Notes: generated from the sequence alone by a model not told the origin. A stretch of 54,558 bases of DNA from a virus (IMGVR_UViG_3300027974_000045:1-54558), one strand, 5' to 3'. Shown: positions 1-19,984, counted from the first letter of the stretch. Numbers and translations are program-made.

Positions 1-24
1 GTCAGGGGCGGGGGGGCGGGGGCA
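1..24. repeat. 24-bp direct terminal repeat (circular assembly overlap)
   Basis: gtcaggggcgggggggcgggggca at 1-24 is identical to 54535-54558; the primase reading frame continues across the join. Confidence 0.95.
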
Positions 25-1088
25 TTTACCGGGTAAATGGGTGTCGGGGTGGGGAGGACCTGCGGCTCACCCTTCGAGGTTCCGAGGGTGATGGGTGATG
101 TGATCTTGCCGTTGTGCGGGCAGGCCGCGCAGATGGCTGGCTGGAAGTCCGACAGCTTGCGGCAGGTGGTGGGATTGAACCGCTTGACCTGCGCCACCTT
201 GGCTGTCGTCTCGGCCTGATTGTACTCAGGGTGCCCGGCCGACCAAGCGTGGCAGACATCCTCGCCCTCCTCAGTGAAGGCGATAACGCCAAGCCCGTGG
301 AACCACGTGGGCTGGTCGACGTTCCCGGCTGTGTCCCGCAACAGGCGGATGACACCGCAGTGCTCGGCGACGACATGGGCCGACGACGGCGGGTAGTCAG
401 GCGTGGAGATCAGGTCCGCGTTTATGTTGGGGACGCCGGCCGACGAGCCCTTCAGGACAGGGACGTCAGTGACGTAGGCCACCAGCGCCTTGTGGAAGTC
501 CTCGCGGGTGGCGACAGGGCCGCCCCGCAGCAGCGTGACAGCGCGTCGGCCGCCGCCCTTGTAGTTGTGAGTGCCCGGCATCCGCAGGACGCTGGCGCTG
601 TCAGAGGTACGCGACGGGTCGGCCGCGAGGCCCCACTGTTTGCAGGCTGCCTTGAGCAGCGACGAGGTCTCGAGCCATACGCCCGGCAGCATGTCTGACC
701 ACATGGGCCAGTAGGCGTGGACGCCATAGCCTGATGACACCAGCCATGGGGCAGGCAGGCCGAGGTCGGCGCAGAAGCGCGTCAGCTCACGGACGGCCTC
801 CTTGCGGTCGGCGTATGCCTCGCGTGGCTTGCTCTCGCGTGTGTCGATGTCCAGCCAGAAGGCCCGCACCGCAGCCACGTTGGCCTGCTTGCGTCCGCCG
901 TTCGCCGAGGCAAACGTGGACAGGGCGTAGTAGGCATCGACGGCCCGGCTGTCGAGGCGGGCGGCTGACCGCTCGAGCCACGCGTTGTCGGGCCCGAACA
1001 CATTTGTAAACCGGCCCGCCGCCAGCGCTCCAGCGCAGCGGATGCCCGCCGTGGGTAGCACGGCGTCGAGGAAATCTTGAACTTGCAT
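1..1088 (-). CDS. N-terminal part of primase-helicase (RepB-like AEP primase plus PriCT-2-like region); continues across the origin
   Basis: Manual translation from ATG 1088: MQVQDFLDAVLP...RAFWLDID...LVSSGYGVHAYWP...CAACPHNGKITSPITLG. RBS GGGAGAG upstream. In frame with ORF 52740..54509; about 960 aa in total. Absent from the ORF track because it runs off the edge. Confidence 0.85.
   Translation of the reverse strand, partial: MQVQDFLDAVLPTAGIRCAGALAAGRFTNVFGPDNAWLERSAARLDSRAVDAYYALSTFASANGGRKQANVAAVRAFWLDIDTRESKPREAYADRKEAVRELTRFCADLGLPAPWLVSSGYGVHAYWPMWSDMLPGVWLETSSLLKAACKQWGLAADPSRTSDSASVLRMPGTHNYKGGGRRAVTLLRGGPVATREDFHKALVAYVTDVPVLKGSSAGVPNINADLISTPDYPPSSAHVVAEHCGVIRLLRDTAGNVDQPTWFHGLGVIAFTEEGEDVCHAWSAGHPEYNQAETTAKVAQVKRFNPTTCRKLSDFQPAICAACPHNGKITSPITLGTSKGEPQVLPTPTPIYPVNAPAPPPL
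24..38. promoter_or_regulatory. 15-bp palindrome, copy inside the primase CDS
   Basis: atttaccgggtaaat, encoding IYPVN in the Pro-rich linker. Confidence 0.7.
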
Positions 1089-1119
1089 TGGTGGTGTCGC
1101 TCTCCCAAACGCTACCTGA

Positions 1120-1380
1120 TCAGGGCTGCTTGTATCTCCGCAAAACCCCGTCGATCCGACGCCGACGCTCGAGGCGGGGCATGTCTTTCGGGGCGGGCAG
1201 TTCTCCAGCTTCTACTGCCCGACGCACCGCGTCAAGGAACCTGTCGACCTCAGCCGCATGCAATGCATGCGGCTGAGTGTGACCGTTGAGCCACGCACTG
1301 GCTGTCGCCCGCGTGACCGCGAGGTGGCGCGTGATGTCGTTGGGCTGTAGCCCCGCGCTCTCAAGGGTCTCGACAAGCAT
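1120..1380 (-). CDS. XRE/Cro-like helix-turn-helix regulator
   Basis: LQPNDITRHLAVTRATASAWLNG fits the Cro/XRE HTH pattern; directly upstream of the primase. Confidence 0.7.
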   Translation of the reverse strand: MLVETLESAGLQPNDITRHLAVTRATASAWLNGHTQPHALHAAEVDRFLDAVRRAVEAGELPAPKDMPRLERRRRIDGVLRRYKQP

Positions 1381-1383
1381 GGC

Positions 1384-2358
1384 CTAGTCGTCGTCCAGCA
1401 TGGCGAGGATGGCGTCGAGGGAGGCGTCGGCTTCCTCCAGAACGCTACGCTCGGCCTTGGCGCGGACCGCCGGGGCCTCGGCCTTGACCGGGGCTTCATC
1501 CTCGGGCTCGGGCTCGGGCTCGGGGGCAGGCTTGGGCTTCGCGGCCACCTTCGCCTTGGCCGGGACAGGCTCGGCCACCTTGGCAGCGCGCTCAGGCCGG
1601 GGCCCAAGCTCGTCCACGCTGGCGGCCGTGTCGGTGCCGCCGTCGCCTTGCTCGATCATGGTGATCTGCCGCACGGTCTCGGACGACGCCAGCTCGTCGA
1701 CGGCGTCAGCCTCCGCCTCGGCCAGCCAGTTCAGGGCCTTAAAGGTCAGGGACGGGTACGCCACGGTGTGGTCGAACCCGATGCGCGTGACCACCGCCTG
1801 ATAGGGTGCGCCGCGCCTGTTGAGCAGCTCGGCGTAGGTGGACAGCCCCTTCAGGCTGGCAGCCGGGACACGCAGCAGCATGGACCGGGTCAGGTCGTCG
1901 GCCGGGGCCACGGCCAGACGGCGGCTGTCGGAGCATGCCTTGCCCTTGGACCCCATCTCCGTGATCTTGGAGCCCCACTGGTTGTGGGGGCAGATGGCGC
2001 ACTTGCCGGCCTGCGGGTCGCTGGCGTCAGCGGCGGGCTTCACGCTGTCGTTCGAGTAGCAGGCAGGCTTCTCGTTGGACCCCTCGCTGTAGCCGTCCGG
2101 GTAGTAGACCTTGGACAGGACGCCGTTGGCCTTCAGGATGACCACGTCCAGCGACGCGCGGGGCTCGCCCTCGTCGTTCATCACCAGCTCGCGGTTGCCG
2201 CTCTCGACCACGTGCCAGACCTTCCCCTTGTACGAGATGATCGGGTAGCCAAGGCCGACGCCGCCGGACAGGTCAGCGTTGCCGCCCCCCTGCGCGTGGC
2301 GCTTGCGGATGTGTGCCGGCACGTTGCCGTTATCTTCGAATGGAATGATGTTGCCCAT
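1384..2358 (-). CDS. Probable ssDNA-binding/replication protein with Cys cluster and acidic tail
   Basis: Start taken at MGNIIPF (2358); CYS...CAICPHNQWGS...KACS; Pro/Ala/Glu linker; ends LDDD; replication-module context. Confidence 0.55.
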   Translation of the reverse strand: MGNIIPFEDNGNVPAHIRKRHAQGGGNADLSGGVGLGYPIISYKGKVWHVVESGNRELVMNDEGEPRASLDVVILKANGVLSKVYYPDGYSEGSNEKPACYSNDSVKPAADASDPQAGKCAICPHNQWGSKITEMGSKGKACSDSRRLAVAPADDLTRSMLLRVPAASLKGLSTYAELLNRRGAPYQAVVTRIGFDHTVAYPSLTFKALNWLAEAEADAVDELASSETVRQITMIEQGDGGTDTAASVDELGPRPERAAKVAEPVPAKAKVAAKPKPAPEPEPEPEDEAPVKAEAPAVRAKAERSVLEEADASLDAILAMLDDD

Positions 2359-2362
2359 GGGC

Positions 2363-2737
2363 TTAGGACCTTCTGACGTTAAGGGTGATCTCTTCACGAT
2401 AGTTCACGCCCGGGGGCAGATCATCGTGTTCTTCTCGGAAGGCCACGACGGCCTCCTTGCTGACGCGGCGCTCGAGCATTTCCCACGCGCGGTTCTCGAC
2501 GATGAACCCGAGCGTGGCCTCCCAGTCCGCCACTGTGGCGGACGTGCGCACCGACTTGTAGGCGGTGCCGCTGTCGGTGCGGGCGCTCTCGATGCCCTGC
2601 TTGCCGAACTCCTGCAGGATCAGCGCTTCGATCTTGTCCATGGGACCTTCGAGCAACGCCGCCTTTTCCTTGAACTGTTTTGCCAGCGCCGCCTTGGCGT
2701 CACGCAGCTTGATGTACTTCTCCACGAGGTCTTTCAT
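2363..2737 (-). CDS. Conserved-type replication-module protein, function unknown
   Basis: RBS AAGGAG, N-terminal coiled coil, LPPGV C-terminal motif. Confidence 0.7.
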   Translation of the reverse strand: MKDLVEKYIKLRDAKAALAKQFKEKAALLEGPMDKIEALILQEFGKQGIESARTDSGTAYKSVRTSATVADWEATLGFIVENRAWEMLERRVSKEAVVAFREEHDDLPPGVNYREEITLNVRRS

Positions 2738-2758
2738 TGGGCTCTCCTTATGTCAAGC

Positions 2759-2786
2759 AGTTTACACTTTTGGGGGCAGGTGTCAA
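2759..2786 (-). promoter_or_regulatory. Sigma70-type promoter for the SSB/HTH/primase genes
   Basis: TTGACA-N16-TAAACT on the minus strand. Confidence 0.55.
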
Positions 2787-4324
2787 CCATGCACCGCCTC
2801 CAGAAGCAGCCCTTGCATCGACTGTTTCTGGCGGAGGCGCTGGTAGATTTTCCGTTCCACCGGGCTGCCGCTGACGTTGACGATCAGCTGGCTGTGCTTC
2901 TGGCCGGGCCGCGAGATGCGGGCGTTGGCCTGCTGGTAGGTCTCGTTGCTGGTGACCGGCGCATACCACAAGATGGTGGACGCAGCGGTCAGGGTCAGGC
3001 CATGGGACATGGCGGCTGGTTGTGCCACCAGTACGCGCGGCCCGCTCTTGTCGTTCTGGAACGCGCTGAAGACGGCGTCCCGGTCGGACTTGCTGACGTC
3101 GCCGCTGATCACGCAGACCTCGTAGTCTGCGCTCAGCTGCTCGGCCACGCGCCGGAGCACGCTCTTGTAGGGGACGAACACGATGGTCTTGGTGCCCGCC
3201 TCCTCGATGGCCTCACGGACCACGGCGATCCGGTGGTCGTTGTCGAGGATGACCTCCTCGCCGTCGGTCCCGTACACCACGCCGCAGGCGATCTGCACCA
3301 GCTTGGACATCTTGACCGCCTCGTTGACGGCCACGACTTGGCTGGTCCCCAGCTCCATCACCAGCTTGGCCGCCATGGTCTTGTAGGCGAGGGCCTGCTC
3401 CTTGGTCATGGGCACCTCCCGCTCGACATAGACGCACTCGGGCAGGTCGATGCAGTCATCCATGGTGAACCGGATGGCAGGCTGCATGGCGTCATGCACG
3501 ATGGTCGTGGCGTCATCCCGGGCGACGGTCTTGAAGGGGCCCAGCTTGCGGGTGACGGCGTCCTGAAACCGGCCGAAGAACTTCGGCACCCGCTCGGGCG
3601 AGATGATGCGGCACTGGGCCCAAGCATCCGTGGGTGCGTTGGGTGTCGGCGTGCCGGTCAGGCCCCACAGCCGCTCGCGGCCACGGCACACGGCGTTGAG
3701 TGACCGCCAACGCCCGGTGCGGGCGTTGCGGAACGACGCGATCTCGTCGATGACGATGGTGTCGATGTCAGTGCGGGCGACCAGTGCGTCCTGCATGACC
3801 TTCACCCCGTCATGATTTATCAGGTAAATGTCGGCGTCTAGGTCGAGCATCTTCTGACGGCGGGCCGATGCCCCGTGAAGCACGGACGTCTGCAGGTGAG
3901 GGAAGTGACGGAACACCTCGTCCGCCCACGTGCGCTCCAGCGTGGACAGGGGCGAGATGACCAGCATCTTGCTCGCCATCCCGATGGACCGCAGGTAGTC
4001 GAACGCCCACAGGGTGGACAGGGTCTTGCCGGTCCCCATGTCCGACAGGACGAAGGCGCGGGGGTTGAGGCTCAGGAACCCTGCCGTCTCACGCTGTGCA
4101 TGGAACGGCTTGTACTCGCCGGACCAGTCATAGTGGTACTCGGTCGGCGACGGCGCGTTGATGCCAAGGTTCCGCAGCACCCGGGTCTCGGCCACGTTGT
4201 GGGGGACAGAGACCATGGTCATGCCGTGGTAGTCGAACGCCTTGGCCGACGGGATGACGGTCGTCACCCGGGCCGGGTCCTTCAGCTTGAGCACCAGCTT
4301 CTGGCTCTTGCGGGAGATGATCAC
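2783..4324 (-). CDS. SNF2-family (SF2) helicase
   Basis: DMGTGKT, VIDE, LTGTP, HGLTLT, QANARISRPGQ; GTG start at 4324 overlaps the upstream stop. Confidence 0.92.
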   Translation of the reverse strand: MIISRKSQKLVLKLKDPARVTTVIPSAKAFDYHGMTMVSVPHNVAETRVLRNLGINAPSPTEYHYDWSGEYKPFHAQRETAGFLSLNPRAFVLSDMGTGKTLSTLWAFDYLRSIGMASKMLVISPLSTLERTWADEVFRHFPHLQTSVLHGASARRQKMLDLDADIYLINHDGVKVMQDALVARTDIDTIVIDEIASFRNARTGRWRSLNAVCRGRERLWGLTGTPTPNAPTDAWAQCRIISPERVPKFFGRFQDAVTRKLGPFKTVARDDATTIVHDAMQPAIRFTMDDCIDLPECVYVEREVPMTKEQALAYKTMAAKLVMELGTSQVVAVNEAVKMSKLVQIACGVVYGTDGEEVILDNDHRIAVVREAIEEAGTKTIVFVPYKSVLRRVAEQLSADYEVCVISGDVSKSDRDAVFSAFQNDKSGPRVLVAQPAAMSHGLTLTAASTILWYAPVTSNETYQQANARISRPGQKHSQLIVNVSGSPVERKIYQRLRQKQSMQGLLLEAVHG

Positions 4325-4527
4325 TTGGAGCACAGCGCCTTCCACGCGGCGTTGTGCGCGACAGCCTGCTTCTGGGTGTCGACGGTGTCATCCTTCGACC
4401 AGTAGATCGGCTTGAACGCCACGCACATGGCGGACGGCGGCTCAGTCTCGACGGAAGCCGTCGTCTTGCACGCTGCCATCAGGAGCAAGGCCAGCCCCGC
4501 CAGCAGCCACGTTGCGTTCCGCATCAT
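4321..4527 (-). CDS. o-spanin (Rz1-like lipoprotein)
   Basis: MMRNATWLLAGLALLLMAAC signal with lipobox; two further Cys; overlaps the i-spanin 3' end in another frame. Confidence 0.75.
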   Translation of the reverse strand: MMRNATWLLAGLALLLMAACKTTASVETEPPSAMCVAFKPIYWSKDDTVDTQKQAVAHNAAWKALCSK

Positions 4528-4684
4528 CCCGAGCTTGTACGGCGATCGTGAGGTCATTGACTGTCTCCTGAAGTGTGGCTGCCGACTGCTCGGCTCTGCC
4601 TGCGTTGATGAGCTGTCGCTCTTGGAAGGCCGCGGCGACGGCGGCCAGAAGTTTGACGACGGTGGCGATGAAGCTAGTCCACAT
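4442..4684 (-). CDS. i-spanin (Rz-like)
   Basis: N-terminal hydrophobic anchor, helical periplasmic part, ends DDGFRRD; overlapped by the lipoprotein gene. Confidence 0.7.
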   Translation of the reverse strand: MWTSFIATVVKLLAAVAAAFQERQLINAGRAEQSAATLQETVNDLTIAVQARDDAERNVAAGGAGLAPDGSVQDDGFRRD

Positions 4685-4976
4685 GGAACCCGACCTCCTT
4701 GAAGGCAGCGATGACCTGATCGACGCTCTCGGCCACCATGGCCAGCGAGCCCGCCTGCATGATGGCTTCCAGCTGCCGCTGCTGCAGGGGTGTGACGGTG
4801 CGGCTCTTGCCCGGGGCTTTCACCTCGATGGCAAACATCTGCCCGCGAACGCACCCCACAATGTCGGGCACGCCATGGGACGAGTAGGCCCCGCCGATAG
4901 GCTGGCAGTACCACACCGCCGGGATGCTGGCGAGGTAGGCCCTGATCTTGGTCTTGACCTTGGCTTCCGGGGTCAT
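4674..4976 (-). CDS. VRR-NUC domain nuclease (resolvase-like)
   Basis: TPEAKVK...GVPDIV...AIEVKAPG...TPLQ. Confidence 0.9.
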   Translation of the reverse strand: MTPEAKVKTKIRAYLASIPAVWYCQPIGGAYSSHGVPDIVGCVRGQMFAIEVKAPGKSRTVTPLQQRQLEAIMQAGSLAMVAESVDQVIAAFKEVGFHVD

Positions 4977-5356
4977 CGGACGACCAGCTTCGGCAGAAGG
5001 CGGATCAGGTCGTGCATGGCGCGGGGGCCGAAGCGCGGGATTTCCACCAGTATTGAGGTGATCTCGTCAGGCTCCAGTCCCTTGAACCGCATGAGCGGGA
5101 TACCCGCACGCTCGAGCGCCGCCGCCGTGCGTGGCTGCAGCTGCTGGTGCGCCTTGATGAACTCGGGGTCGTTCCCACCCACCAGCTCGGGCAGGCGTCT
5201 CTTGTACTCGCGAGCTGAGGACAGGAGCTTGTTCACCCGGTCGATGGACAGGTCCATCTTGAGGGCGACCTGCTCTTTCGTCAGGCCGAGGGATATGTAC
5301 TGAAGGACCTGCATGTCCTTTCGTTGAATGAAGCGGGCCACGGTTATTCTCCACAA
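4973..5356 (-). CDS. HTH protein with RNA-polymerase alpha-CTD-like C-terminus
   Basis: GLTKEQVALKMDLSIDRV (LuxR/sigma4-like HTH) plus RTAAALERAGI...IPRFGPRAMHDLIRLL; start may be 5314. Confidence 0.55.
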   Translation of the reverse strand: MWRITVARFIQRKDMQVLQYISLGLTKEQVALKMDLSIDRVNKLLSSAREYKRRLPELVGGNDPEFIKAHQQLQPRTAAALERAGIPLMRFKGLEPDEITSILVEIPRFGPRAMHDLIRLLPKLVVR

Positions 5357-6012
5357 TGTTCACAAAGATGCTTACCCACAGGGCAGTATGCCCTGCACAG
5401 TCCAGACGGCTTGGGGGGATAGTTGTTGTCTCGAGCGGCGATCTCCAGCCGCTGCACACGGGGGGCGAAGTGCTGCCAGATGTCGGGCAGCTCTTCGCGG
5501 GTAAAGGTCTCGGGCGTAGTGGTGCCGTCCTTCAGCCAGACGAACGCGCTGACCACCTTGTCGATCTTGGGGTTGAGCTGCATGGTGATCCCGGCCGTCA
5601 GCTTCAGCTGCGCGGAGGCAGGCGTGGGCCGGCCGGTCTTCCAGTCCCCGATGAACGCCTTGTTCCCCTTGAAGATCGTGAAGTCCGTGATAGCACGCAC
5701 CCACACATCCTTGGCGAACCACGACGTCGCGCCGAAGTTTGCGGTCATGGCCATCTGCTGCTCGCTGACCAGCTTGCCACCCTTGGCCCGGGCGATGACC
5801 GACGCAGCGAGGGGCTCGTACTCCTTGAGGGTGTCGGGCAGGGGGGTGTGCCCGGTCAGCCGCTTGTCGAGGGCTTGGTGAACCCTGTTGCCCCACGTCA
5901 TGGCGTCCGAGGGTTTCTCGGTCACCTGCTTGCTGACCTTGATCAGGTAGTGGCGACGGGGGCAGGTCTCGAAGCTGTCGAGGACGGAGTAGGACCACGC
6001 AATGCGGCTCAT
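5344..6012 (-). CDS. PD-(D/E)XK exonuclease (RecB/Cas4-like)
   Basis: Start MSRIAWSYS; CPRRHY, WGNRVH, D...IGDWKTG, QL, and C-terminal LCRAYCPV..C. Confidence 0.85.
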   Translation of the reverse strand: MSRIAWSYSVLDSFETCPRRHYLIKVSKQVTEKPSDAMTWGNRVHQALDKRLTGHTPLPDTLKEYEPLAASVIARAKGGKLVSEQQMAMTANFGATSWFAKDVWVRAITDFTIFKGNKAFIGDWKTGRPTPASAQLKLTAGITMQLNPKIDKVVSAFVWLKDGTTTPETFTREELPDIWQHFAPRVQRLEIAARDNNYPPKPSGLCRAYCPVGKHLCEHCGE

Positions 6013-6230
6013 TGTTTCAGCTCTTTCGCGGCTCGCCTGATCTGGCCGAGCAGGTTCATGTATGACCTGTCGCCCACGCTTTTGGAGAGGCGGGGGTTCA
6101 TCGGTAAGATGCCCACCAGCCGGCCGGCAGGCACCACGGCGCGGTGCCTGCTCTTGGCAGTGATCTCCCACGGCAGGCCGGTCGCGTCCAGCTCTGCTCG
6201 TAGGTTGTCAGGTATTCGGAGTGCGCTCAT
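6009..6230 (-). CDS. Hypothetical protein
   Basis: Overlapping neighbours in a tightly packed operon. Confidence 0.6.
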   Translation of the reverse strand: MSALRIPDNLRAELDATGLPWEITAKSRHRAVVPAGRLVGILPMNPRLSKSVGDRSYMNLLGQIRRAAKELKQ

Positions 6231-6546
6231 TGGCTGCCTCTGCTTTCTTTTTGGCTCGGTGACGGCGCATGTACAGGGTGCGCCTCATGGTCTCAAAGTC
6301 TTGTAGCTCAGCCTTCATGCGCACAATCCGTGTCTTACGACGGACGCGCACCTGCACTTCTGTAACCCGCCAAAGCTCGGCGGTGATAACCTTGACACTA
6401 CAGGGCTCGAACAAGTAGTGCAACCGTTCCATGGGGACATCCCCATGGCGTAGCTCGTCGCGCACGATGCGCTGCACCCGCCGCCACTGGCCCAGTGGCA
6501 GGGCTGCCATCTGGTCGATGCGGGTCTTAGAGAAGCTCGTAGGCAT
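6208..6546 (-). CDS. Basic hypothetical protein
   Basis: Start MPTSFSK at 6546 with GGAGGAGG RBS. Confidence 0.6.
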   Translation of the reverse strand: MPTSFSKTRIDQMAALPLGQWRRVQRIVRDELRHGDVPMERLHYLFEPCSVKVITAELWRVTEVQVRVRRKTRIVRMKAELQDFETMRRTLYMRRHRAKKKAEAANERTPNT

Positions 6547-6958: not shown

Positions 6959-6988
6959 GCGGGCGTGCCTCTCTCGGGGTTGGTTGGG

Positions 6989-7405: not shown

Positions 7406-7408
7406 CGC

Positions 7409-9917: not shown

Positions 9918-9923
9918 CCCGGG

Positions 9924-11033: not shown

Positions 11034-11076
11034 TGGGGTAGCCTTTCAGGTTGGGGTGTAAAGAATTGGGTAACTA

Positions 11077-11105
11077 AAACTACGGCGGATAGGCATAGCT
11101 GTCAA
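11077..11105 (-). promoter_or_regulatory. Sigma70-type promoter upstream of the vWA gene
   Basis: TTGACA-N17-TAGTTT. Confidence 0.55.
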
Positions 11106-11358: not shown

Positions 11359-12193
11359 ACATTTCCTCCATCTTTGCCATCATGTCGGCCATCTCGTCGA
11401 CCACGGCCTCACGCTTGTGCGGCTGGACCCGCAGCTGGCCCGGGGTGTGGGCGCAGAGCGAGCCCTGCAGCCTGACACGCATGGCCTCGAGGTGAGGGTC
11501 GTCGGTCAGGTTGAGGCTGGGCAGGATGCTCACCAACTCCTGCGCGTTCTCGACGAGGCTGTCACGGAACACGTTCTCCGGGCCGGACAGGCGCTCGTGG
11601 GCCTTGGCCACCACGTCGTGGATGCGTGACCACGCCTCACGCATGGCCTCCTCGGTGTTGGCGCTGATCTGTGCGGTCAGCTGCTCACGCAGGTCCTTGA
11701 TGGCGTCGTCGCCGAGCGAGACCCGGAAGTCATCGCCGACCGGCATGAACGCCACCTCGAACCGGAACCGCCGGCGCAGCTCGTACACCGACGGGTAGTC
11801 AGCGTCGCTGTACATGCCGCCCAGCCGCTGGGGTGCGGCCGCCTTGAGTGCGGGGTAGTCCTGCATGAAGTGGTCGGCGACGCCCTCCCACTGCGACTTG
11901 TAGTCGCCGAGCCGCTTGGCGAAGGCCATGTAGCCGACCGCCTTGCAGATGCGGGCGACCGGGCCCCACGGCAGGGTGTTGGCGAGGAAGTAGGTGCGCA
12001 CCTCGCCGGTGAGCTTCTGCAGGTCGGCGAGGCTGGCAGCGCCGGGCAGCAGGGACTTGTTGACCCGGGCCACGTCGTTGCGGATGCCGTGCTTGGCGGC
12101 GACGTCGAGGGTCTCGCGCTTGTCCAGCTTGCGGGCGGACCACTGCGACATGTTGAGCGATACGAGGAGGGCGCGATCTGCGAGGGAAGTCAT
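11345..12193 (-). CDS. DUF3150-like helical protein
   Basis: WSARKLD, TLPW, F..DYP, YPS..ELR.RF, LNLTDDP; lies between the ATPase and vWA genes. Confidence 0.6.
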   Translation of the reverse strand: MTSLADRALLVSLNMSQWSARKLDKRETLDVAAKHGIRNDVARVNKSLLPGAASLADLQKLTGEVRTYFLANTLPWGPVARICKAVGYMAFAKRLGDYKSQWEGVADHFMQDYPALKAAAPQRLGGMYSDADYPSVYELRRRFRFEVAFMPVGDDFRVSLGDDAIKDLREQLTAQISANTEEAMREAWSRIHDVVAKAHERLSGPENVFRDSLVENAQELVSILPSLNLTDDPHLEAMRVRLQGSLCAHTPGQLRVQPHKREAVVDEMADMMAKMEEMYGAR

Positions 12194-12238
12194 GTGGTAG
12201 TCTCCTTGGGTGTGCGGGGCCCCACCATGGGGCCCCTG

Positions 12239-12253
12239 ATTTACCGGGTAAAT
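12239..12253. promoter_or_regulatory. 15-bp palindrome
   Basis: atttaccgggtaaat, intergenic, next to a GC hairpin at 12216-12236. Confidence 0.8.
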
Positions 12254-12259
12254 GGGGTA

Positions 12260-13258
12260 TCAGGCCCCGGCGATCATCTTGCCGGTGGTGATGGCCCACT
12301 TGATGAACGTCTTGCTCTCCTGCAGCTTGGGCAGGCGGGCAACCACGTCACCGATGACGACCGCCGAGAACTCGGCGGGCAGGCGGTTCACGAATGTCAT
12401 CACGTCGGCGAAGTTCGCCTCGGTGGTGGCCATGGCCAGCGAGCTGGCGACAGCGAACCGGATGTCCGGCTTCTCCGGCACCGGGTGGGTGTCGGGGGCC
12501 TTGAGGATGTCCGAGATGCGGGGCAGGTCACGCCACATCCGCATGTGGGCCTTGAACTCTGCGGCCGGGCCCTCGCCGACAGCTCCGGCGAACAGCTCGT
12601 ACTCGAGGTGCTCGGGCAGCTGGCCGATGAACGGCGAGATACCCTCGGCCCACGCACGGGGCGTGGGGTTGATGTCCCGGTTGGGGTCGAAGCTGTGCAG
12701 CAGGTCGGTCTTGAACCTCAAGAACGCGATCAACTCCATGCGCACACCGGCCGGGATAGCCCACGCCACCCAGTCGTCGAGGCTGACATCGTAGGTCAGC
12801 GTCGTCATGCGGTTGCGCAGGTGGGACAGGATGCGGTTGGCCCCGGCCCTGTCACTGGCGCGGTTGCCGGTCATGACGATCGACCAGCCAGCCTTGAGCT
12901 TGTGCCCGTGGATTTCCCGCTCCTGCACAAGGTTGGCGAGGATTTTCTGTATGGCGTTGTCCGCCTGCGGGGCCTCGTCGATCAGGATCACGCCAGCGTC
13001 CGGGTAGTCGGTACCCTCCAGCGGCCAGCAGGAGTTGGCGATGAAGTTATAAGACAGGCGGTCAACGCTCGGCATGCCGAGCGCGACATGCTCGGGCAGC
13101 ATGGTCGGCGCATGGAAGAGCAGGATCGGCAGGCCCATGGACTTGGCCACCTGCTGCACCACCTGCGTCTTGCCGCCGCCGGGGGGGCCTTCGATCATGA
13201 CCGTGCGACGGCCGGTGATCATGACGCGGAGGACATTGGAAAGGTCGGAGGGTTTCAT
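12260..13258 (-). CDS. MoxR/CbbQ-like AAA+ ATPase
   Basis: GPPGGGKT, ILIDE, TGN sensor, LRNR Arg finger, TPRAW. Confidence 0.9.
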   Translation of the reverse strand: MKPSDLSNVLRVMITGRRTVMIEGPPGGGKTQVVQQVAKSMGLPILLFHAPTMLPEHVALGMPSVDRLSYNFIANSCWPLEGTDYPDAGVILIDEAPQADNAIQKILANLVQEREIHGHKLKAGWSIVMTGNRASDRAGANRILSHLRNRMTTLTYDVSLDDWVAWAIPAGVRMELIAFLRFKTDLLHSFDPNRDINPTPRAWAEGISPFIGQLPEHLEYELFAGAVGEGPAAEFKAHMRMWRDLPRISDILKAPDTHPVPEKPDIRFAVASSLAMATTEANFADVMTFVNRLPAEFSAVVIGDVVARLPKLQESKTFIKWAITTGKMIAGA

Positions 13259-13276
13259 TGGGTAGTTCCTTCAGTG

Positions 13277-13291
13277 ATTTACCGGGTAAAT
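13277..13291. promoter_or_regulatory. 15-bp palindrome
   Basis: Between the promoter and the ATPase RBS. Confidence 0.8.
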
Positions 13292-13332
13292 CCCGGCGGG
13301 GTTGGCGATGGGTGTGTTCCCATCGTTTTAAT

Positions 13333-13361
13333 AGTATAGCAGAAGTTGCAGTCTATGTCAA
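13333..13361 (-). promoter_or_regulatory. Strong sigma70 promoter for the ATPase operon
   Basis: TTGACA-N17-TATACT. Confidence 0.8.
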
Positions 13362-13576
13362 GACCCCTCACAGTATTCGACCGGGACCTGTGAGTAGAGC
13401 CATGCTGCTGCCTTCAGGTAACCTTGGGCAGCCAGTGTCTTTGCTACGGCGGCGATCGTGTCACCTGATATGTCAGCCGCAAGCTGGCGGCTGTGACCTG
13501 TGATGGTCTGGCCGGTCAGCACCTCGGTAAAGAACGCGCGCTGGGTAGCAAGCGAGCAGGTGTCATGCAGGGTCAT
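13358..13576 (-). CDS. Small hypothetical protein
   Basis: GGAG RBS within the upstream gene's 3' end. Confidence 0.55.
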   Translation of the reverse strand: MTLHDTCSLATQRAFFTEVLTGQTITGHSRQLAADISGDTIAAVAKTLAAQGYLKAAAWLYSQVPVEYCEGS

Positions 13577-13805
13577 CGGGGTTCTCCATCTCTAGGGGTT
13601 CGACCTCGCGGTCGTGAGCGGGCCATGTGTTGCCCGGCCATTCCGCCCGCTTGTGTGGGTCCGGGTGCGGGACCAGCAGTCGGAGCAGCAAGGGGTAGTG
13701 TCCCGGGTTGTTTGCCTTAACCACGACAGCGACGTGCCCCCTCACAGGCCCGTCCACGCCCTTGCCCTTGATCCTCACCCAGTCGCCGACCTTGAACTCA
13801 CTCAT
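13563..13805 (-). CDS. SH3/KOW-like mini-protein (array member)
   Basis: MSEFKVGDWVRI...GHVAVVV...EVEPL. Confidence 0.7.
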   Translation of the reverse strand: MSEFKVGDWVRIKGKGVDGPVRGHVAVVVKANNPGHYPLLLRLLVPHPDPHKRAEWPGNTWPAHDREVEPLEMENPDDPA

Positions 13806-13984
13806 CTCGGCAGCTCCTTCAAGGCCGCACGCACCTCCCGCTCCAGCTGGCGCAGGTCCTCACGGGCCCGGGCTACCATGGTGTCGGTGGTCCACCCGTG
13901 GGTGGTGTTGTGGGCGGTGAGCGCCCGGGTTTTTATTGACAGCAGCAGGTCCTTGGCCTGCGGGGACAGGACGACGTAGGTCAT
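13802..13984 (-). CDS. Small helical protein (HxWTTD family, copy 1)
   Basis: Start MTYVVLS at 13984 with GGAGGAG RBS; HGWTTDTMVARAREDL. Confidence 0.6.
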   Translation of the reverse strand: MTYVVLSPQAKDLLLSIKTRALTAHNTTHGWTTDTMVARAREDLRQLEREVRAALKELPR

Positions 13985-14202
13985 GGGGTCTCCTCCAGAA
14001 GTTTGAAGTGATCGGTTGAGAGGTACAGGTAGGTGCGGCCCTGTCCCCGCAGGTAGTCGCGGACGTAGGGTGTCGGGCACAGCGGACGGACGGCGACGCC
14101 TCCGTTCAGGAAGCGAGTGCGGTCTTCGACGACCACGCAAACCATGTCCTTGTAGCGGCCGGCAGTGCAGCAAACGACGACATCACCCGGTTGGAAAGTC
14201 AT
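13981..14202 (-). CDS. SH3/KOW-like mini-protein (array member)
   Basis: MTFQPGDVVVC...YKDMVCVVVE...VRPL. Confidence 0.7.
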   Translation of the reverse strand: MTFQPGDVVVCCTAGRYKDMVCVVVEDRTRFLNGGVAVRPLCPTPYVRDYLRGQGRTYLYLSTDHFKLLEETP

Positions 14203-14473
14203 CGGGTCCTCCTATCCTTGTCAGTTCGCTGGCGCGCATCTCCGTGAGCTGGCCGGGGGCGGGGCGTGTCCAGTTGTCCCTCGCAGGGTTGCCCACCAGT
14301 ATCACGATCGACGCCACCCAGTGCCCGTAGGTGCCGGGCGTGAGGATGCAGTGCTGGACGATGTAGGTGTGGCCCTCACCCCTGCTCTCGGTGATGCGGA
14401 CCACATCCCCCTCCTTGAGCGGGGGCGGGGGCTCGGTCGAGGGGGCGGGTTTCGATCTGGGTTTACGTGCCAT
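14183..14473 (-). CDS. SH3/KOW-like mini-protein (array member)
   Basis: LKEGDVVRI...ASELTRI. Confidence 0.65.
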   Translation of the reverse strand: MARKPRSKPAPSTEPPPPLKEGDVVRITESRGEGHTYIVQHCILTPGTYGHWVASIVILVGNPARDNWTRPAPGQLTEMRASELTRIGGPDDFPTG

Positions 14474-14726
14474 CTGGGTTCTCCACGAGTTGTAGCCATG
14501 CGGTCTTGAGCAACAGGTAATCCCTACCGACCTCGTTCAAGTGTGCCCGGACGGGGGGTGCGGCCACCAGCGGGCGCACCGGGGTGTTGCCCTGCATCGA
14601 GTAGGGGGGGTCGGGCGGATACTCGATCACGACACCAACCATGCCCTTGTACCTTTTGCGGTACTCGGGACTGGGCGGCAAGCCTTTGGAGAAGCACACG
14701 ACGTCTCCTATCTTGAAGTCAGTCAT
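14463..14726 (-). CDS. SH3/KOW-like mini-protein (array member)
   Basis: MTDFKIGDVVCF...YKGMVGVVIE...VRPL...LQLVENP. Confidence 0.7.
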   Translation of the reverse strand: MTDFKIGDVVCFSKGLPPSPEYRKRYKGMVGVVIEYPPDPPYSMQGNTPVRPLVAAPPVRAHLNEVGRDYLLLKTAWLQLVENPDGT

Positions 14727-14931
14727 CTGTTTTACCCGGTAAATACGGGTCCTCTACTAAGGTGAAGCTGTTGGGGTAGTCTCTGAGGCGGGGCTTGTCC
14801 CACCAGTAGGGTACGCCCAGCAGGAACCGCACCGTGATGGTGCCGTCCCCGGTGTGGGTGGTGACCACGACCCCCAGCTCCTCCCCCTCGTACTTGTAGC
14901 GGACGAGGTCGCCGGGCTTGAGCCTCACCAT
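14719..14931 (-). CDS. SH3/KOW-like mini-protein (array member)
   Basis: MVRLKPGDLVRY...LGVVV...ITVRF...FTLVED. Confidence 0.7.
   Translation of the reverse strand: MVRLKPGDLVRYKYEGEELGVVVTTHTGDGTITVRFLLGVPYWWDKPRLRDYPNSFTLVEDPYLPGKTDD
14730..14744. promoter_or_regulatory. 15-bp palindrome (1 mismatch, opposite centre)
   Basis: ttttacccggtaaat at a gene junction. Confidence 0.75.
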
Positions 14932-15218
14932 GCCAGTGGCCTCCGCTCGTGGGCCATGCGCAGCAGGCATGTTGTGTCCCAGCACGCTACCACGCGGTGT
15001 GCAATGTGGGCGGCCGAGATGGAGCGGTCGCCAAGCAGGGTGTCTGGCAGGGTGGCGAGGTCCCGCCGCACCTTGTCACTGGCGTCGGTCGTCCAGAGAT
15101 GGGCAGCGTCGAGGGCCTCGCCGATGGCGTGGAACAGCAGTTGCCTGACCGTGTCGGCGGACATGGGTGCGGGGCGGGTATGGTGGGTGGGTGTGGGGGT
15201 CGTGGTTACCATGGTCAT
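14925..15218 (-). CDS. Small helical protein (HxWTTD family, copy 2)
   Basis: Start MTMVTT at 15218 with AAGGAG RBS; HLWTTDASDKVRRDL. Confidence 0.55.
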   Translation of the reverse strand: MTMVTTTPTPTHHTRPAPMSADTVRQLLFHAIGEALDAAHLWTTDASDKVRRDLATLPDTLLGDRSISAAHIAHRVVACWDTTCLLRMAHERRPLAW

Positions 15219-15466
15219 TCTCCTTCGGGGTCTAGGGGCATGGGGGTTACTTCGTTGGCGTTGAACCACCAGCCGCCGCTGGCATACGCGTCCGGGTCAC
15301 CACGCTGGGCGAGCGAGGGATCGAACGTGCCAAGGAACCGCAGCTTGACGCCGTCGGGACCTGTATCCACCACCATCCCGGCGGCAGGCAGGGCGAAGGG
15401 CGGCTGGCCCCGGCTGTATTGTTTCACGGGCACGAGGGCCCAGTCGCCTATCTTGAAGTCAGTCAT
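15215..15466 (-). CDS. SH3/KOW-like mini-protein (array member)
   Basis: MTDFKIGDWALV...GMVVD...VKLRF...WWFNANEVTP. Confidence 0.7.
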   Translation of the reverse strand: MTDFKIGDWALVPVKQYSRGQPPFALPAAGMVVDTGPDGVKLRFLGTFDPSLAQRGDPDAYASGGWWFNANEVTPMPLDPEGE

Positions 15467-15740
15467 CGTCGGTCTCCAGTGCCTCTAGGTTCCTGATCTG
15501 GTAGTGGGCCCGGCCTCCGTTCGCGAACCGCACGCCGACGGTCCACTCCGGCTGGGCTTCAGCCAGCCGCACCTCCTCGGCCGAGTACTTGTCGACCGCC
15601 GTCAGCGCGTCCTTGTGGTACATGCTGAACAGGTTCTCGATCCACCCCACCCAGCCGGGCTCGCCGTAGCCGTCGTAGGCATCGTAGGTGTCGGCGATCC
15701 GCACGGGCAGGCCGACATACAGTTTTGTGCCGCGTTTCAT
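15459..15740 (-). CDS. SH3/KOW-like mini-protein (array member)
   Basis: LYVGLPVRI...GWVGWI...VGVRF...NLEAL. Confidence 0.65.
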   Translation of the reverse strand: MKRGTKLYVGLPVRIADTYDAYDGYGEPGWVGWIENLFSMYHKDALTAVDKYSAEEVRLAEAQPEWTVGVRFANGGRAHYQIRNLEALETDDD

Positions 15741-15961
15741 GGCTCATTCTCCACGAGGGTCAGCCGGCTGACATGGGTGAAACCCCCATGGGCTATGACG
15801 CCGGCGTCGAGGGCGGGGTGCGGCAGCAGGGGCTTGAGCCACCGCTCGTGCGTGCCCTCGGGCAGCTTGTCGGAGCCCCACGGGACCACGACAAACAGGC
15901 ACCCCTTGAAGTGGGCGTTGTCGTTGATGGCGACGACGTCGCCTATCTTGATGTCAGCCAT
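15737..15961 (-). CDS. SH3/KOW-like mini-protein (array member)
   Basis: MADIKIGDVVAI...FKGCLFVVV...LKPL...LTLVENEP. Confidence 0.7.
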   Translation of the reverse strand: MADIKIGDVVAINDNAHFKGCLFVVVPWGSDKLPEGTHERWLKPLLPHPALDAGVIAHGGFTHVSRLTLVENEP

Positions 15962-16142
15962 CGATGATCTCCATCTCGTGGGCCCACATGGCCTGCTGCT
16001 CGGCACCGTCGACAAACCTGACGACCTGCGGCAACAGGCCGTCGAGGACCCACCCCACCTTGCCGACGTAGCTGATGGGGGTAGCCCCCTCGACGATGCG
16101 GACGAGGGAGCCGACGGGCAGGCTGGTATTGTGAACTCTCAT
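15954..16142 (-). CDS. SH3/KOW-like mini-protein (array member)
   Basis: LPVGSLVRI...YVGKVGWV...VVRFVDG...EMEII. Confidence 0.7.
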   Translation of the reverse strand: MRVHNTSLPVGSLVRIVEGATPISYVGKVGWVLDGLLPQVVRFVDGAEQQAMWAHEMEIIDG

Positions 16143-16363
16143 GGGGTTGGGACCTTTCTCAGGTGGATGGGGCGGTGGTTCGAGGTGTTGCCGTCCACTC
16201 CCCGCATGGTGGCGTACCAGATGCCCGAGTTATGGTACTTGTCGAACTTGACGACCCATCCGAACCACTGGCGCCTGCTGCCAAACACGACATAGTCGCC
16301 GACCTTGAGCCCGTTGTGGGCTTTGATGCGGCGTGGGCGGGATTTACCGGGTAAATCAGCCAC
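16139..16363 (-). CDS. SH3/KOW-like mini-protein (array member)
   Basis: LKVGDYVVF...FGWVVKF...HLRKV. Confidence 0.7.
   Translation of the reverse strand: MADLPGKSRPRRIKAHNGLKVGDYVVFGSRRQWFGWVVKFDKYHNSGIWYATMRGVDGNTSNHRPIHLRKVPTP
16342..16356. promoter_or_regulatory. 15-bp palindrome
   Basis: atttaccgggtaaat at a gene junction. Confidence 0.8.
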
Positions 16364-16784
16364 GGCCCTTGCCCCCGTGGATTTCGGTGGTCTGCAGTAT
16401 CTCGGCCATCCGGCGCATGTTCCGCGCCCGGGTCTCCGCCTCGATGGCCGGCTCCTTTACCACGCGCCAGTGCAGGCGGACGGCGTCCCGCATGGCGAGA
16501 AAGATCGCACGCTCGGCCTCGTAGCGGCCACGTCCGTCGGCCGCCATGTCGCCACCCGAGGGGAGCGAGTGGGTGCCCTCACGGGCGATCAGGTGGTATG
16601 CCTCCGCCTCGGCGGCAGGGGCCTCGACCCCACGGTTTGCGGCGTTGACGAGGTCGAGCCCCGCCAGCGCCATGCGGCGCACGATGTGGCCCCACTCAAG
16701 CGCGGGGTTGCGCATGGCCGCCATCATGGCGTCGAGGATGTCGGTGGCGTCGCGGTAGCCATAGCCGTTGTTCGGGGTGGTCAT
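16356..16784 (-). CDS. Hypothetical helical early protein
   Basis: AAGGA RBS; first gene after the 16.9-kb promoter. Confidence 0.7.
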   Translation of the reverse strand: MTTPNNGYGYRDATDILDAMMAAMRNPALEWGHIVRRMALAGLDLVNAANRGVEAPAAEAEAYHLIAREGTHSLPSGGDMAADGRGRYEAERAIFLAMRDAVRLHWRVVKEPAIEAETRARNMRRMAEILQTTEIHGGKGRG

Positions 16785-16809
16785 GGTGTCAGTCCTTTCA
16801 GGGTCAGGG

Positions 16810-16824
16810 ATTTACCGGGTAAAT
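16810..16824. promoter_or_regulatory. 15-bp palindrome
   Basis: Between promoter and RBS. Confidence 0.8.
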
Positions 16825-16871
16825 GGGTCGGGCCCGGCACTGGTTGGGAGGGGTCTCTCAACACAACCTGT

Positions 16872-16900
16872 ATTATGGCACATTTGTGATGCTATGTCAA
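16872..16900 (-). promoter_or_regulatory. Strong sigma70 promoter for the mini-gene array
   Basis: TTGACA-N17-CATAAT, bracketed by a 9-bp inverted repeat aacacaacc/ggttgtgtt. Confidence 0.75.
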
Positions 16901-16941
16901 TGGTTGTGTTAATGGATGGGGCCACGGCTGGATGCCGTATG

Positions 16942-17190
16942 TCAGGGTGTGGGGGCCTTCTGGAGCTCGTCGTAGCCGAACCACCACGTCTCGCCGCTGA
17001 CGATATGCCGGCACTTGCAGGTGCTGGAGGCAAGGTCGATCACCACCAGCAGTGACGGGGACTTCATGACAGGCGGGGTGCGCAGCAGGCGACCACCCGT
17101 CAGGGCCGTGATGCTGTCCAGCCGCCACGGGTTGGCGCAGGTGACCACGTCACCTAGGGCGAAGGGGGCTGCGAGGTCGTGGTCAGTCAT
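16942..17190 (-). CDS. SH3/KOW-like mini-protein (array member)
   Basis: PFALGDVVTC...LVVID...WWFGYDELQK. Confidence 0.65.
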   Translation of the reverse strand: MTDHDLAAPFALGDVVTCANPWRLDSITALTGGRLLRTPPVMKSPSLLVVIDLASSTCKCRHIVSGETWWFGYDELQKAPTP

Positions 17191-17524
17191 GGGGATTTAC
17201 CGGGTAAATGTCGTCGCCGATGACCCACTTGTGGGTGCCATCGACCATGCGGATGATCCACGCAGGCGTCATGACGAAGGTATCGGAGGCGAGGGGGTGC
17301 GTGGGCTCGGCGCGGGGGTAGAGGCTCACCACCCACCCCACGGAGCCTTCGGGGTGAATGTTGGCGATCGCGTAGCTGGAGCCAGAGAGACGCCACCCCG
17401 GCTCGTGGGGTATGGGCGTAGCCGTGCGGGCCAGACGGCGCTTGAGCGCCACGCAGTCGCCGGGGGCGAAGGCGGGCTCAGGTGTGGGCGCAGGGTTGGT
17501 AGGGTGTCGGGGTGTGGGGGGCAT
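17183..17524 (-). CDS. SH3/KOW-like mini-protein (array member), possibly leaderless
   Basis: FAPGDCVAL...GSVGWVV...IIRMVDG; ATG is 7 nt from a -10 box. Confidence 0.6.
   Translation of the reverse strand: MPPTPRHPTNPAPTPEPAFAPGDCVALKRRLARTATPIPHEPGWRLSGSSYAIANIHPEGSVGWVVSLYPRAEPTHPLASDTFVMTPAWIIRMVDGTHKWVIGDDIYPVNPHD
17195..17209. promoter_or_regulatory. 15-bp palindrome
   Basis: atttaccgggtaaat at a gene junction. Confidence 0.8.
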
Positions 17525-17530
17525 GAAGCG

Positions 17531-17559
17531 AGATTATGGCCGGGGCCGGGAAATGTCAA
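17531..17559 (-). promoter_or_regulatory. Sigma70 promoter heading the early arm
   Basis: TTGACA-N17-TAATCT. Confidence 0.6.
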
Positions 17560-17569
17560 CTGCTTGACC

Positions 17570-17584
17570 ATTTACCCGGTAAAT
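17570..17584. promoter_or_regulatory. 15-bp palindrome
   Basis: atttacccggtaaat, 10 bp upstream of a -35 box. Confidence 0.8.
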
Positions 17585-17588
17585 CGCT

Positions 17589-17625
17589 TCACGCTATGTC
17601 TGCCCACAGACATAGCGTGATTTTT
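17589..17625 (+). other. Perfect 14-bp stem-loop followed by T5
   Basis: tcacgctatgtctg-ccca-cagacatagcgtga-ttttt. Confidence 0.75.
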
Positions 17626-18453
17626 AGGGGTGCGCAAGCGGAAACGCCACGAGGGGGCTCGCGCAGCGCCCGGGGACACCACCGGGGGACGAATGCGCGC
17701 TGAAAATGGTTGAGAATCGTGGTTTTTGGAGGAAAAAGTGTAGGGATTTCGGGGACTTGCCAGAGATGTCTAAGATGTACGCCTTTTTTGAGGGTGTCGG
17801 GGTTTTGGGGCCATTTTTGGCCGGGATGGGGGGTAAACTGGACGGTCACATCCAAACAACCCTAAATTAGGGACCAAAAAAAGTGGGATTGGTTTTACAA
17901 CCTAACAAATCAATGAATACAGCTTTTGTGGTTTATCTTTTTTCCTAACCCATTGGTTTCGTTGGATTTCTCCGATGGCTTCCCGCCGGCCCCCCCGCGT
18001 GCATCGCACCTAGCAGGGTACCCGTTCGGGCTAAGTGGTTGATTCTTATGACATACACGTAACCCGTCGCCAATTGCACAATTGTCGCCCAATATCGGGG
18101 CTCCGCCCCGGACCCCGGCAAACCCCCGTGGCGTAAGGATTTCCGGCTCATTTCCCTGTGACCGATTTATAACCGTAAATATCGCCCTCCGGCCACATGT
18201 TCCGCTATACATGCCGGGGTTTTATGCGCAGTTGCTAATGTATGCAGCCCCCGGGTGTATTTCGCAACCTGATCGGGTATTTCAAATAGTTCCACCGTCC
18301 AAAAATGAAACCCAGTCTATCCACATTTCGATGCGGTATGCCCAGATCGGGTATGTTTTCGTGCAACCCACGATCACATATGCCCGCCTACGCCTGCCCG
18401 GCCCGCGCGCCCCACACATGTGCGGTTTCCTCTTAGGGCGGCGCGGCGCTGGC

Positions 18454-18468
18454 ATTTACCCGGTAAAT
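18454..18468. promoter_or_regulatory. 15-bp palindrome
   Basis: ggc-atttacccggtaaat-gcc upstream of the 18556 gene. Confidence 0.8.
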
Positions 18469-19977: not shown

Positions 19978-19984
19978 GGCGCGC

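Follow-up and report, generated by a model that had tools for sequence, protein, structure and literature searches.

Why would a phage repeat one short palindrome along one arm of its genome and leave the other arm free of it? We addressed this question in an uncultured freshwater phage represented by the IMG/VR virus record IMGVR_UViG_3300027974_000045:1-54558, a stretch of 54,558 nucleotides (nt) that was analyzed whole and is called the window below. It carries the 15-bp palindrome ATTTACC(C/G)GGTAAAT in nine exact and two imperfect copies, all within the leftward early/replication arm. The copies that can be compared in a close relative are conserved there, and across the wider phage family palindromes with lineage-specific arms occupy equivalent positions. 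We favor, tentatively and at a little less than even likelihood, the reading that the palindromes are recognition sites for a putative, fast-evolving and phage-encoded DNA-binding regulator of the early arm; the binder would most likely read two inverted half-sites, TTTACC and GGTAAA.

Since the two ends of the window share 24 bases and the window is a whole IMG/VR record, it is a circular assembly of 54,534 bp and a complete virus record. Minus-strand genes run leftward from ~18.4 kb through position 1 to ~52.7 kb and encode a primase/DUF927 helicase, an SNF2 helicase, a VRR-NUC nuclease, a PD-(D/E)XK nuclease and a DNA polymerase A, along with a DnaA-domain-IV-like helix-turn-helix (HTH) protein, a DUF2201/VWA protein, a MoxR-like AAA ATPase and a row of small ORFans. 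On the plus strand, genes between 18556 and 51476 code for terminase, an SU10-type portal and adaptor, capsid, fibers, internal virion proteins and a 3072-aa protein. The predicted gene content of both arms thus identifies the phage as a podophage with two divergent arms. A search of sequencing runs for the phage listed two DNA runs, its probable source, and one further run with a small share, and no RNA run.

Exact copies of the palindrome start at positions 24, 9903, 12239, 13277, 16342, 16810, 17195, 17570 and 18454, and none of 100 dinucleotide shuffles contained any match. Allowing up to two mismatches raised the count to 11, with copies at 14730 (one mismatch) and 3815 (two mismatches); at up to three mismatches the same 11 were found, against a shuffle mean of 0.15 and a largest shuffle count of 1, and no copy lay between 18469 and the end of the window. 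A sequence-only reading had earlier listed 10 copies, placed them only in the early/replication arm or at its border and judged a chance origin very unlikely. These statements stand, the copy at 3815 being an addition to the list. By placement, six of the 11 copies are intergenic, three lie at gene ends (14730, 16342 and 17195) and two within genes (24 and 3815). The site is a perfect 7+1+7 dyad whose central base, on the coding strand, is C in seven cases and G in three. With the minus strand as the coding strand, each of the 10 good copies is followed by an ATG within 3-48 nt: in copy order from 24 to 18454, the distances are 37, 32, 45, 18, 3, 48, 25, 4, 45 and 34 nt. Two of these starts are doubtful, namely, an in-frame internal ATG after copy 24 and the start of a short unconserved open reading frame (ORF) after copy 18454.

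Circularity places copy 24..38 inside one continuous gene, as the two ORFs at the window ends form a single 960-aa primase/DUF927 helicase (52740..1088 across the join, that is, 52740-54558 plus 1-1088; minus strand). The copy lies in the linker between the primase and DUF927 parts, with the in-frame ATG at 54509, and the earlier statement that one copy is buried deep in the primase gene is borne out. We dropped the idea that an internal start at the primase copy is a general rule; by arithmetic, the analogous ATG in the Rhizobium phage RHph_TM27A is out of frame. The degenerate copy at 3815..3829, ATTTATCAGGTAAAT, lies within the SNF2 helicase gene. Copy 9903..9917 is intergenic, 6 nt past the stop codon of the DUF2201/VWA gene and directly ahead of the DnaA-domain-IV-like gene, and copy 12239..12253, also intergenic, lies 6 nt past the stop codon of the MoxR-like AAA gene, ahead of the ATG at 12193, and is followed by a G+C-rich hairpin. 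At gene ends, copy 14730..14744 falls within the 3' end of ORF 14719-14985 (next ATG at 14726), copy 16342..16356 overlaps the stop codon of ORF 16356-16784, and copy 17195..17209 falls within the 3' end of ORF 17183-17524, where it is read as IYPVN (next ATG at 17190).

The four remaining copies are associated with promoters or promoter-like elements. The sigma-70-like promoter at 16872..16900 (minus strand; TTGACA-17-CATAAT) is followed by copy 16810..16824, which begins 48 nt past the -10 element and ends 25 nt before the ATG at 16784; that of the AAA gene at 13333..13361 (minus strand; TTGACA-17-TATACT) is followed by copy 13277..13291, which begins 42 nt past the -10 and ends 18 nt before the ATG. 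Both promoters show 11 of 12 matches and a TG before the second hexamer. Copy 17570..17584 lies between a long hairpin (17589-17620) and a leftward -35, 10 nt from the TTGACA of a promoter-like element at 17531..17559 (minus strand; TTGACA-17-TAATCT). This element was recognized by eye, below the scan threshold, and lies 6 nt before the ATG at 17524; it would give a leaderless or near-leaderless mRNA. Copy 18454..18468, in the divergent region between the arms, lies 9 nt upstream of the -35-like hexamer of a second element recognized by eye, at 18478..18506 (plus strand; TTGAAT-17-TATCTA), ahead of the first structural-arm gene (18556). These two copies and one in a related locus (L217) end 9-13 nt before a -35-like hexamer. 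Among 26 strong sigma-70-like early-strand promoters in 16 genomes and loci, 12 have a site beginning 36-70 nt past the -10, and 11 of these 12 sites begin at 36-54 nt. In five genomes, a scan of the divergent control regions for strong promoters (10 or more matches out of 12) found none on the early strand.

The sequence-only reading had proposed conservation in relatives as a check on function, and the outcome is positive: the sites are kept in one close relative and the architecture is found family-wide. An exact-motif scan of IMG/VR returned 65 stretches, all with single chance matches except for one contig with two. This contig, G001 (also L082), is a 4,414-bp fragment 72-90% identical to window positions 17499-21165, and both palindrome copies that it covers are conserved, as are the promoter-like element beside copy 17570 and, nearly, the hexamers beyond copy 18454. 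At the latter site the flanks have diverged, 6 nt are inserted before the -35 and the central C/G base is flipped, while all 14 dyad positions are intact, which we take as direct evidence of selection on the dyad with freedom at its center. A megablast comparison with cultured phages found no near-identical relative of the window.

For the wider family, we searched IMG/VR with DNA polymerase A and obtained 62 loci at 38-59% identity, which were oriented with the early genes upstream. The window motif, at up to two mismatches, was absent from these loci save for a lone ATTAACCCGGTTAAT in L206. We scored a locus as positive when it held a family of at least four identical 6+6 inverted repeats with exact arms and compared it with eight Markov shuffles per locus. 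Eighteen of the 62 loci were positive, two pairs of near-duplicates among them, whereas the shuffles reached three copies in one locus and at most two elsewhere; among the 39 loci that extend 5 kb or more upstream of the polymerase, 17 were positive by our own count. The repeated palindrome is thus common but not universal in the phage family. The arms are A+T-containing, invariant within one genome and different from lineage to lineage: GTTATCCCGGGATAAC in 11 copies (L211), ATTAACC-NN-GGTTAAT in nine (L217), TGTGAC-N4-GTCACA in eight (L225), TGTGACACGTGTCACA in seven (L218), GTGACAT-G-ATGTCAC (L251) and TGTGAC-N5-GTCACA (L257) in six each, and ATTGCC-N4-GGCAAT (L216), ATTGCAC-G-GTGCAAT (L222), GTTAAA-N3-TTTAAC (L210), TGTGAA-N4-TTCACA (L254) and TGATAC-N5-GTATCA (L259) in five each, with four-copy families in several further loci.

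The relatives' sites have the contexts seen in the window: they follow a stop codon and precede a Shine-Dalgarno sequence with its ATG, and the orthologous promoter of the AAA gene has a site ~40-50 nt past its -10. In all four further whole genomes (G002-G005), every site lies in the early/replication arm (12, 17, 11 and 11 sites, two of the 17 being duplicates from a terminal repeat). The closest cultured phages are Rhizobium phages of the RHph_TM group (SNF2 45% identical), for which a literature search found no paper naming them. RHph_TM27A has a gene order in common with the window and carries 34 TTACC-N5/6-GGTAA sites, in both arms and often inside genes. Among relatives of the AAA protein (one viral and nine metagenome loci, 44-51% identity), the window motif was absent at up to three mismatches. 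Three loci of this set, more distant and of lower GC, have no dispersed palindromes but repeats of the TTTAGATAG type, both direct and inverted, that cluster locally (L070 4420-4731, L077 ~2026-2136 and L078 ~1316-1532) and could represent iterons or an operator cluster.

In the window as in its relatives, almost every intergenic copy follows a stop codon and precedes the next Shine-Dalgarno sequence or ATG, and an element acting in RNA could be placed in the same way. On this account, a hairpin in the polycistronic early mRNA before each ribosome-binding site would be recognized by a phage or host RNA-binding protein or endoribonuclease and serve translational repression, processing or nut-like loading. 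The start of leader copies 36-54 nt past the -10 in 11 of 12 cases, the constancy of the arms while loop length and sequence change among relatives, and arms reaching 10-11 bp in some lineages would suit it. We nevertheless consider it unlikely, if worth serious weighing, and the RNA hairpin named among the options of the sequence-only reading is weakened by the following. Among copies with one or two arm differences in 17 families, 29 were one-sided and two compensatory, and this difference indicates that sequence, not structure, is constrained. By our own reading, the coding-strand transitions among the arm variants show no wobble bias (six wobble-compatible, 10 not). Within a single transcription unit, a given spacer is found in either orientation, so that loops of both orientations stand on the same coding strand (ACAT seven times and ATGT five times in G003; CGG seven times and CCG twice in G005). 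The window hairpin alone folds at -3.8 kcal/mol; in four of 10 contexts it is not the minimum-energy fold, G+C-rich alternatives winning, it is marginal in a fifth, and in just two of the 10 contexts does the folding reach z <= -3. Copies 17570 and 18454 lie upstream of the neighboring -35 elements, and many of the RHph_TM27A copies are deep inside genes. Lone half-sites are depleted three- to fourfold in G003 and G005. An argument from dyad symmetry continuing through an unpairable center was dropped; families with asymmetric centers are about as many.

Several observations weigh against a DNA-binding regulator of this kind. Eight of the 12 promoter-linked sites belong to one orthologous AAA-gene promoter and hence are not independent, most sites hug the junction of stop codon and Shine-Dalgarno sequence, which would suit a role at the RNA level too, neither the window nor RHph_TM27A shows a depletion of lone half-sites, and by the exact-arm measure a family of four or more copies is missing from 22 of the 39 loci that reach 5 kb or further upstream of the polymerase. 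The length of the spacer varies while the arms persist, which is awkward for a rigid dimer on B-DNA: TTTACC arms are combined with N1 in the window and N4 in L215; at four orthologous sites, L216 has N4 and L219 N3 in genomes 72-82% identical; N4 in L225 contrasts with six identical N5 copies and one N4 copy in L251, a relative of 85% identity; and RHph_TM27A has N6 at 26 sites and N5 at eight. Nor does any of the four HTH candidates discussed below co-occur with the palindromes, no binder was found, and at blastp E <= 1e-4 no small nucleic-acid-binding family is common to the six palindrome-bearing whole genomes, which have in common terminase, portal, an SSB-like protein, AAA, SNF2, a Gp157-like protein, VWA, nuclease and primase.

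The drift in spacer length would agree with a hairpin, with a flexible dimer or with two half-sites that are read independently of each other, and it implies that sets of sites are replaced together, via gene conversion or copy-paste. A bolder version of the regulator reading, to which we give a low but not negligible likelihood, builds on this: the mini-palindrome could be an "address label" with fast turnover, copy-pasted in either orientation before early cistrons. A phage protein would read it otherwise than a usual duplex operator is read, either extruded as a hairpin or cruciform or as a pair of half-sites independent of each other. Such a label would explain both the persistence of arms with spacers of 1 to 6 nt and the switching of whole site sets to another variant between 85%-identical genomes.

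The same exchange of variants could reflect the palindromes' own propagation. They would then be self-propagating or recombination-linker elements, spread by copy-paste or gene conversion and offering microhomology joints for the shuffling of early-gene cassettes; the PeSL cassettes of T4-type phages and REP-like repeats are the closest analogues. Spacer sequences are common among the copies of a genome, in both orientations, the six identical N5 spacers of L251 stand in places orthologous to those where L225 has N4 with varied sequences, and the 62 related loci contain no homologues of the early ORFans that lie between the sites. However, the Y1 transposase (PF01797) was found in none of five whole genomes and Phage_integrase (PF00589) in one of the five, not the window; copies also stand ahead of conserved core genes at orthologous positions; the sole homology break that could be inspected, at ~18538 between the window and G001, is 70 nt off the site; and intragenomic recombining repeats cost stability, so that their retention suggests a function. 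A recombination site that shuffles early genes was also among the options of the sequence-only reading. We regard this explanation as rather improbable.

Two relatives encode a tyrosine integrase, L207 and G002 (40583-41020, minus strand), but the window and the three other whole genomes have none; in L207, a copy of its own palindrome (11134-11148) lies apparently inside the integrase gene, the integrase being read by eye only. In the Rhizobium phage MN988461.1, a 1027-aa gene at 42248-45331 (L266 22249-25332) is annotated as "putative integrase" and the record has 14-bp attL/attR features. This gene occupies the position of the window's primase/helicase and clusters with it, and the annotation may be wrong.

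If a regulator reads the sites, which protein might it be? The sequence-only reading had put forward four candidates, and none follows the palindromes. An XRE-like small HTH protein (1120..1380, minus strand; sub-threshold Pfam matches to HTH_31 at E=0.013 and HTH_3 at E=0.13) is the only one of them kept at a syntenic position, an iterated profile search finding it in 19 ORFs of related loci. A site lies directly upstream of it in three lineages, and its recognition helix differs between lineages, a variation that is confounded with phylogeny. It is present in three of the six palindrome-bearing whole genomes, being absent from G003, G004 and RHph_TM27A despite their strong palindromes, and present in four loci where no palindromes were found. 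The DnaA-domain-IV-like HTH protein (9304..9870, minus strand), whose gene is directly preceded by a copy, has family members in 10 of the 62 related loci and one of the six whole genomes. For the HTH/alphaCTD-like small protein (4973..5356, minus strand; a weak LuxR/sigma-region-4-like HTH), no homologue was detectable in the 62 loci, and for the 18556 protein none was found in the related loci by tblastn, its gene also lacking a DNA-level alignment to G001. NCBIfam and relaxed Pfam searches of the small early proteins gave only sub-threshold HTH hints, for 1120-1380 and 4973-5356. No immunity repressor was identified.

The regulator could also be borrowed from the host: each phage would have adopted a transcription-factor site of its own host. 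The arms are common to phage groups that may share hosts, and TGTGAC-N4-GTCACA, found in one sub-lineage, contains the CRP-type core. Yet relatives with CRP-like arms also use N5 spacing, and related phages each recruiting a different host factor to the same positions would be unlikely. A scan of 185,579 species genomes gave, among the at least 121 stretches listed, scattered matches, one small contig with two and none with many, which counts only weakly against a host box. Taken together, we consider a host regulator box very unlikely.

A further possibility concerns single-stranded DNA. As a hairpin or cruciform, the element could serve an injected RNA polymerase of non-canonical type as a compact promoter, or it could signal priming to the DUF927 primase; phage N4 uses hairpin promoters for its injected RNA polymerase. 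The form of the element (a 6-bp stem and a 3-nt loop), its confinement to the early arm, an ATG 11-13 nt from the dyad center in the close-spaced copies (our own count) and the giant virion proteins conserved in the phage family agree with such a signal. The 3072-aa protein of the virion arm (42258-51476, plus strand), however, shows no polymerase signal by sequence: it has no Pfam match and no solved-structure match by sequence, and its PHROG matches are to a DarB-like family, at the C-terminus, and a family of unknown function. Its homologues are two to five thousand residues long and have varied enzyme domains; we take the Pfam families found in them to be polyvalent-protein domains and not polymerase domains, and the protein is probably an injected multi-domain "polyvalent" protein. 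The early arm is already supplied with near-consensus sigma-70 promoters, the central base has no consistent strand, and a priming signal should not be limited to one arm. We thus think a single-stranded signal improbable.

Comparison with known systems helps to place the palindromes. On analogy, the closest described counterpart is the set of 17-bp dyad repeats TGTTCGG-N3-CCGAACA of Cluster O mycobacteriophages, whose authors predict a dimeric DNA-binding protein, its identity and function being unknown to them (PMC4351075). As described there, these too have invariant inverted arms around a variable center and show no meaningful orientation with respect to transcription; many lie between genes or at gene ends, some lie within genes, and the phages are not obviously temperate (PMC4351075). 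They belong to actinobacteriophage siphoviruses with >30 copies genome-wide (PMC4351075), whereas the window has 11 early-arm copies in a podophage with a probably Gram-negative host. Unlike the Cluster O repeats as that text presents them, the arms here change by lineage, the spacer length drifts and there is no sequence relationship.

The stoperators of Cluster A phages resemble our sites in having many copies of a short site throughout transcription units and a sequence that varies between sub-lineages; they act beyond promoters as elongation blocks, which would be a further likeness (PMC9283540, PMC6550527). The same sources describe them as asymmetric, 13-14 bp long, oriented with transcription and bound by a monomeric immunity repressor in temperate phages (PMC9283540, PMC6550527, PMC4351075). 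The palindromes here are dyads in either orientation, in genomes of which four of five lack an integrase. Dispersal in short gaps, mostly away from promoters, is a mark of stoperators that the window's 11 copies share. The operator/roadblock network put forward by the sequence-only reading is the option that fits best: the invariant arms, the lack of compensatory change, spacers in either orientation and promoter-linked positions agree with it. The sites are, however, dyads and not oriented asymmetric elements like stoperators, and no binder was found.

The KorB operator OB of plasmid RK2, TTTAGCGGCTAAA, lies 4-10 bp or much further upstream of promoters (PMC11790492). Like the window's site, it is short and palindromic with the form TTTA..S..TAAA; its copies, about a dozen, are both promoter-proximal and distal, and it serves a global regulator (PMC11790492). 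KorB, however, is a ParB-family CTPase clamp on a plasmid (PMC11790492), whereas here we have a phage in which ParB_N was not found and there is no partition system. In placement, two window copies lie 9-10 nt before -35-like hexamers identified by eye and the rest are distal, and the resemblance is one of form only; an exact-string literature search for the OB consensus returned no match. A parS/KorB-like centromere and silencing system, to which the site form and about ten copies clustered on one side of the genome would point, is close to refuted, and the parS/matS-like site of the sequence-only reading is not supported: the ParB_N domain (PF02195) was found in none of five whole genomes at E <= 0.01, while 11 of 14 control genomes responded. 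The phiC31 repressor binds a ~17-bp inverted repeat with many copies in the early region, in a temperate phage with a known repressor; a literature search on these inverted repeats found nothing relevant. The start-associated sequences of Cluster K phages are asymmetric and include the ribosome-binding site, unlike the palindromes here, which are dyads and usually separate from the Shine-Dalgarno sequence. What the two have in common is a repeated motif tied to gene 5' ends (PMC3203893, PMC4351075).

Returning to the DNA-binding regulator, the positions of the sites suggest how it might act. Some sites immediately precede promoters, where the early arm begins and within the divergent control region between early and late genes; others lie ~40-50 nt downstream of the two strongest internal promoters; and further ones are found at most of the remaining cistron junctions. 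From these three kinds of position, one protein could gate the whole leftward early/replication arm, by shut-off or as an elongation block, and the same protein might couple this gating to the rightward late promoter. A protein ligand, duplex DNA as its target, repression by roadblock and a phage origin of the binder are what we infer from the pattern of sites.

The region between copies 17570 and 18454 has features of its own. The apparently non-coding control region at 17590..18453 (864 bp) has a GC content of 54%, compared with 65.5% for the genome, and its ORFs have third-position GC (GC3) of 0.52-0.64, compared with 0.82-0.88 in neighboring genes. In the comparison with G001, conservation comes in blocks and the three codon phases have about equal shares of the mismatches (92/92/86). 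It holds an A+T-rich tract, GATCGGGTAT twice (18271 and 18345) and CAATTG twice, 8 nt apart (18071 and 18079), gave no Rfam match and might function as a replication origin, in regulation or as a non-coding RNA. The hairpin at 17589-17620, adjoining copy 17570 and conserved in G001, has a 14-bp stem followed by a T-run on the plus (non-coding) strand; it would terminate rightward (antisense) transcription or act both ways. For the whole window, Rfam at the gathering threshold and a tRNA scan gave no match.

In the leaders of the AAA genes, we noted by eye a short inverted repeat between promoter and palindrome that differs per lineage (window 13292-13332; L222 ~4150-4199; L216 ~4070-4116; L209 ~1485-1528), such as GATGGG..CCCATC in the window and TTGGGGGA..TCCCAAC in L222. 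It looks like a 5' leader hairpin kept by compensatory change. At the other side of the control region, the gene at window 18556-19356 is replaced in G001 by one with four tandem 24-nt repeats (2649-2744), and on this comparison the first late-arm gene appears highly variable. The longest ORF of the DNA polymerase (7409-9604, minus strand) overlaps the DnaA-domain-IV-like ORF by 300 nt; the real polymerase start is probably near 9307, because relatives align only from about residue 104 of the polymerase. Giant virion proteins are kept across the phage family, and a weak spanin-like match in the window suggests a Gram-negative host.

Genome-wide dyad repeats in lytic phages, such as those of Cluster O, have been on record for a decade, and neither a binder nor a function has been assigned to them. 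To these the present case adds an architecture that recurs with different arms among 62 loci, five whole uncultured genomes and a cultured Rhizobium phage, is restricted to the early arm and has a fixed place behind the promoter of the AAA gene. The question thereby becomes testable, as co-variation across lineages can point to the binder, and RHph_TM27A with its 34 sites offers a laboratory system. If the sites prove to be mobile hairpins, they would represent a new route of gene-cassette flux in phages, and if they act as address labels, a new system of early-gene control or cassette capture in a widespread, almost uncultured phage family. Should the binder prove to be a global early-gene switch, the lineages would together provide a compact orthogonal set of regulator/site pairs.

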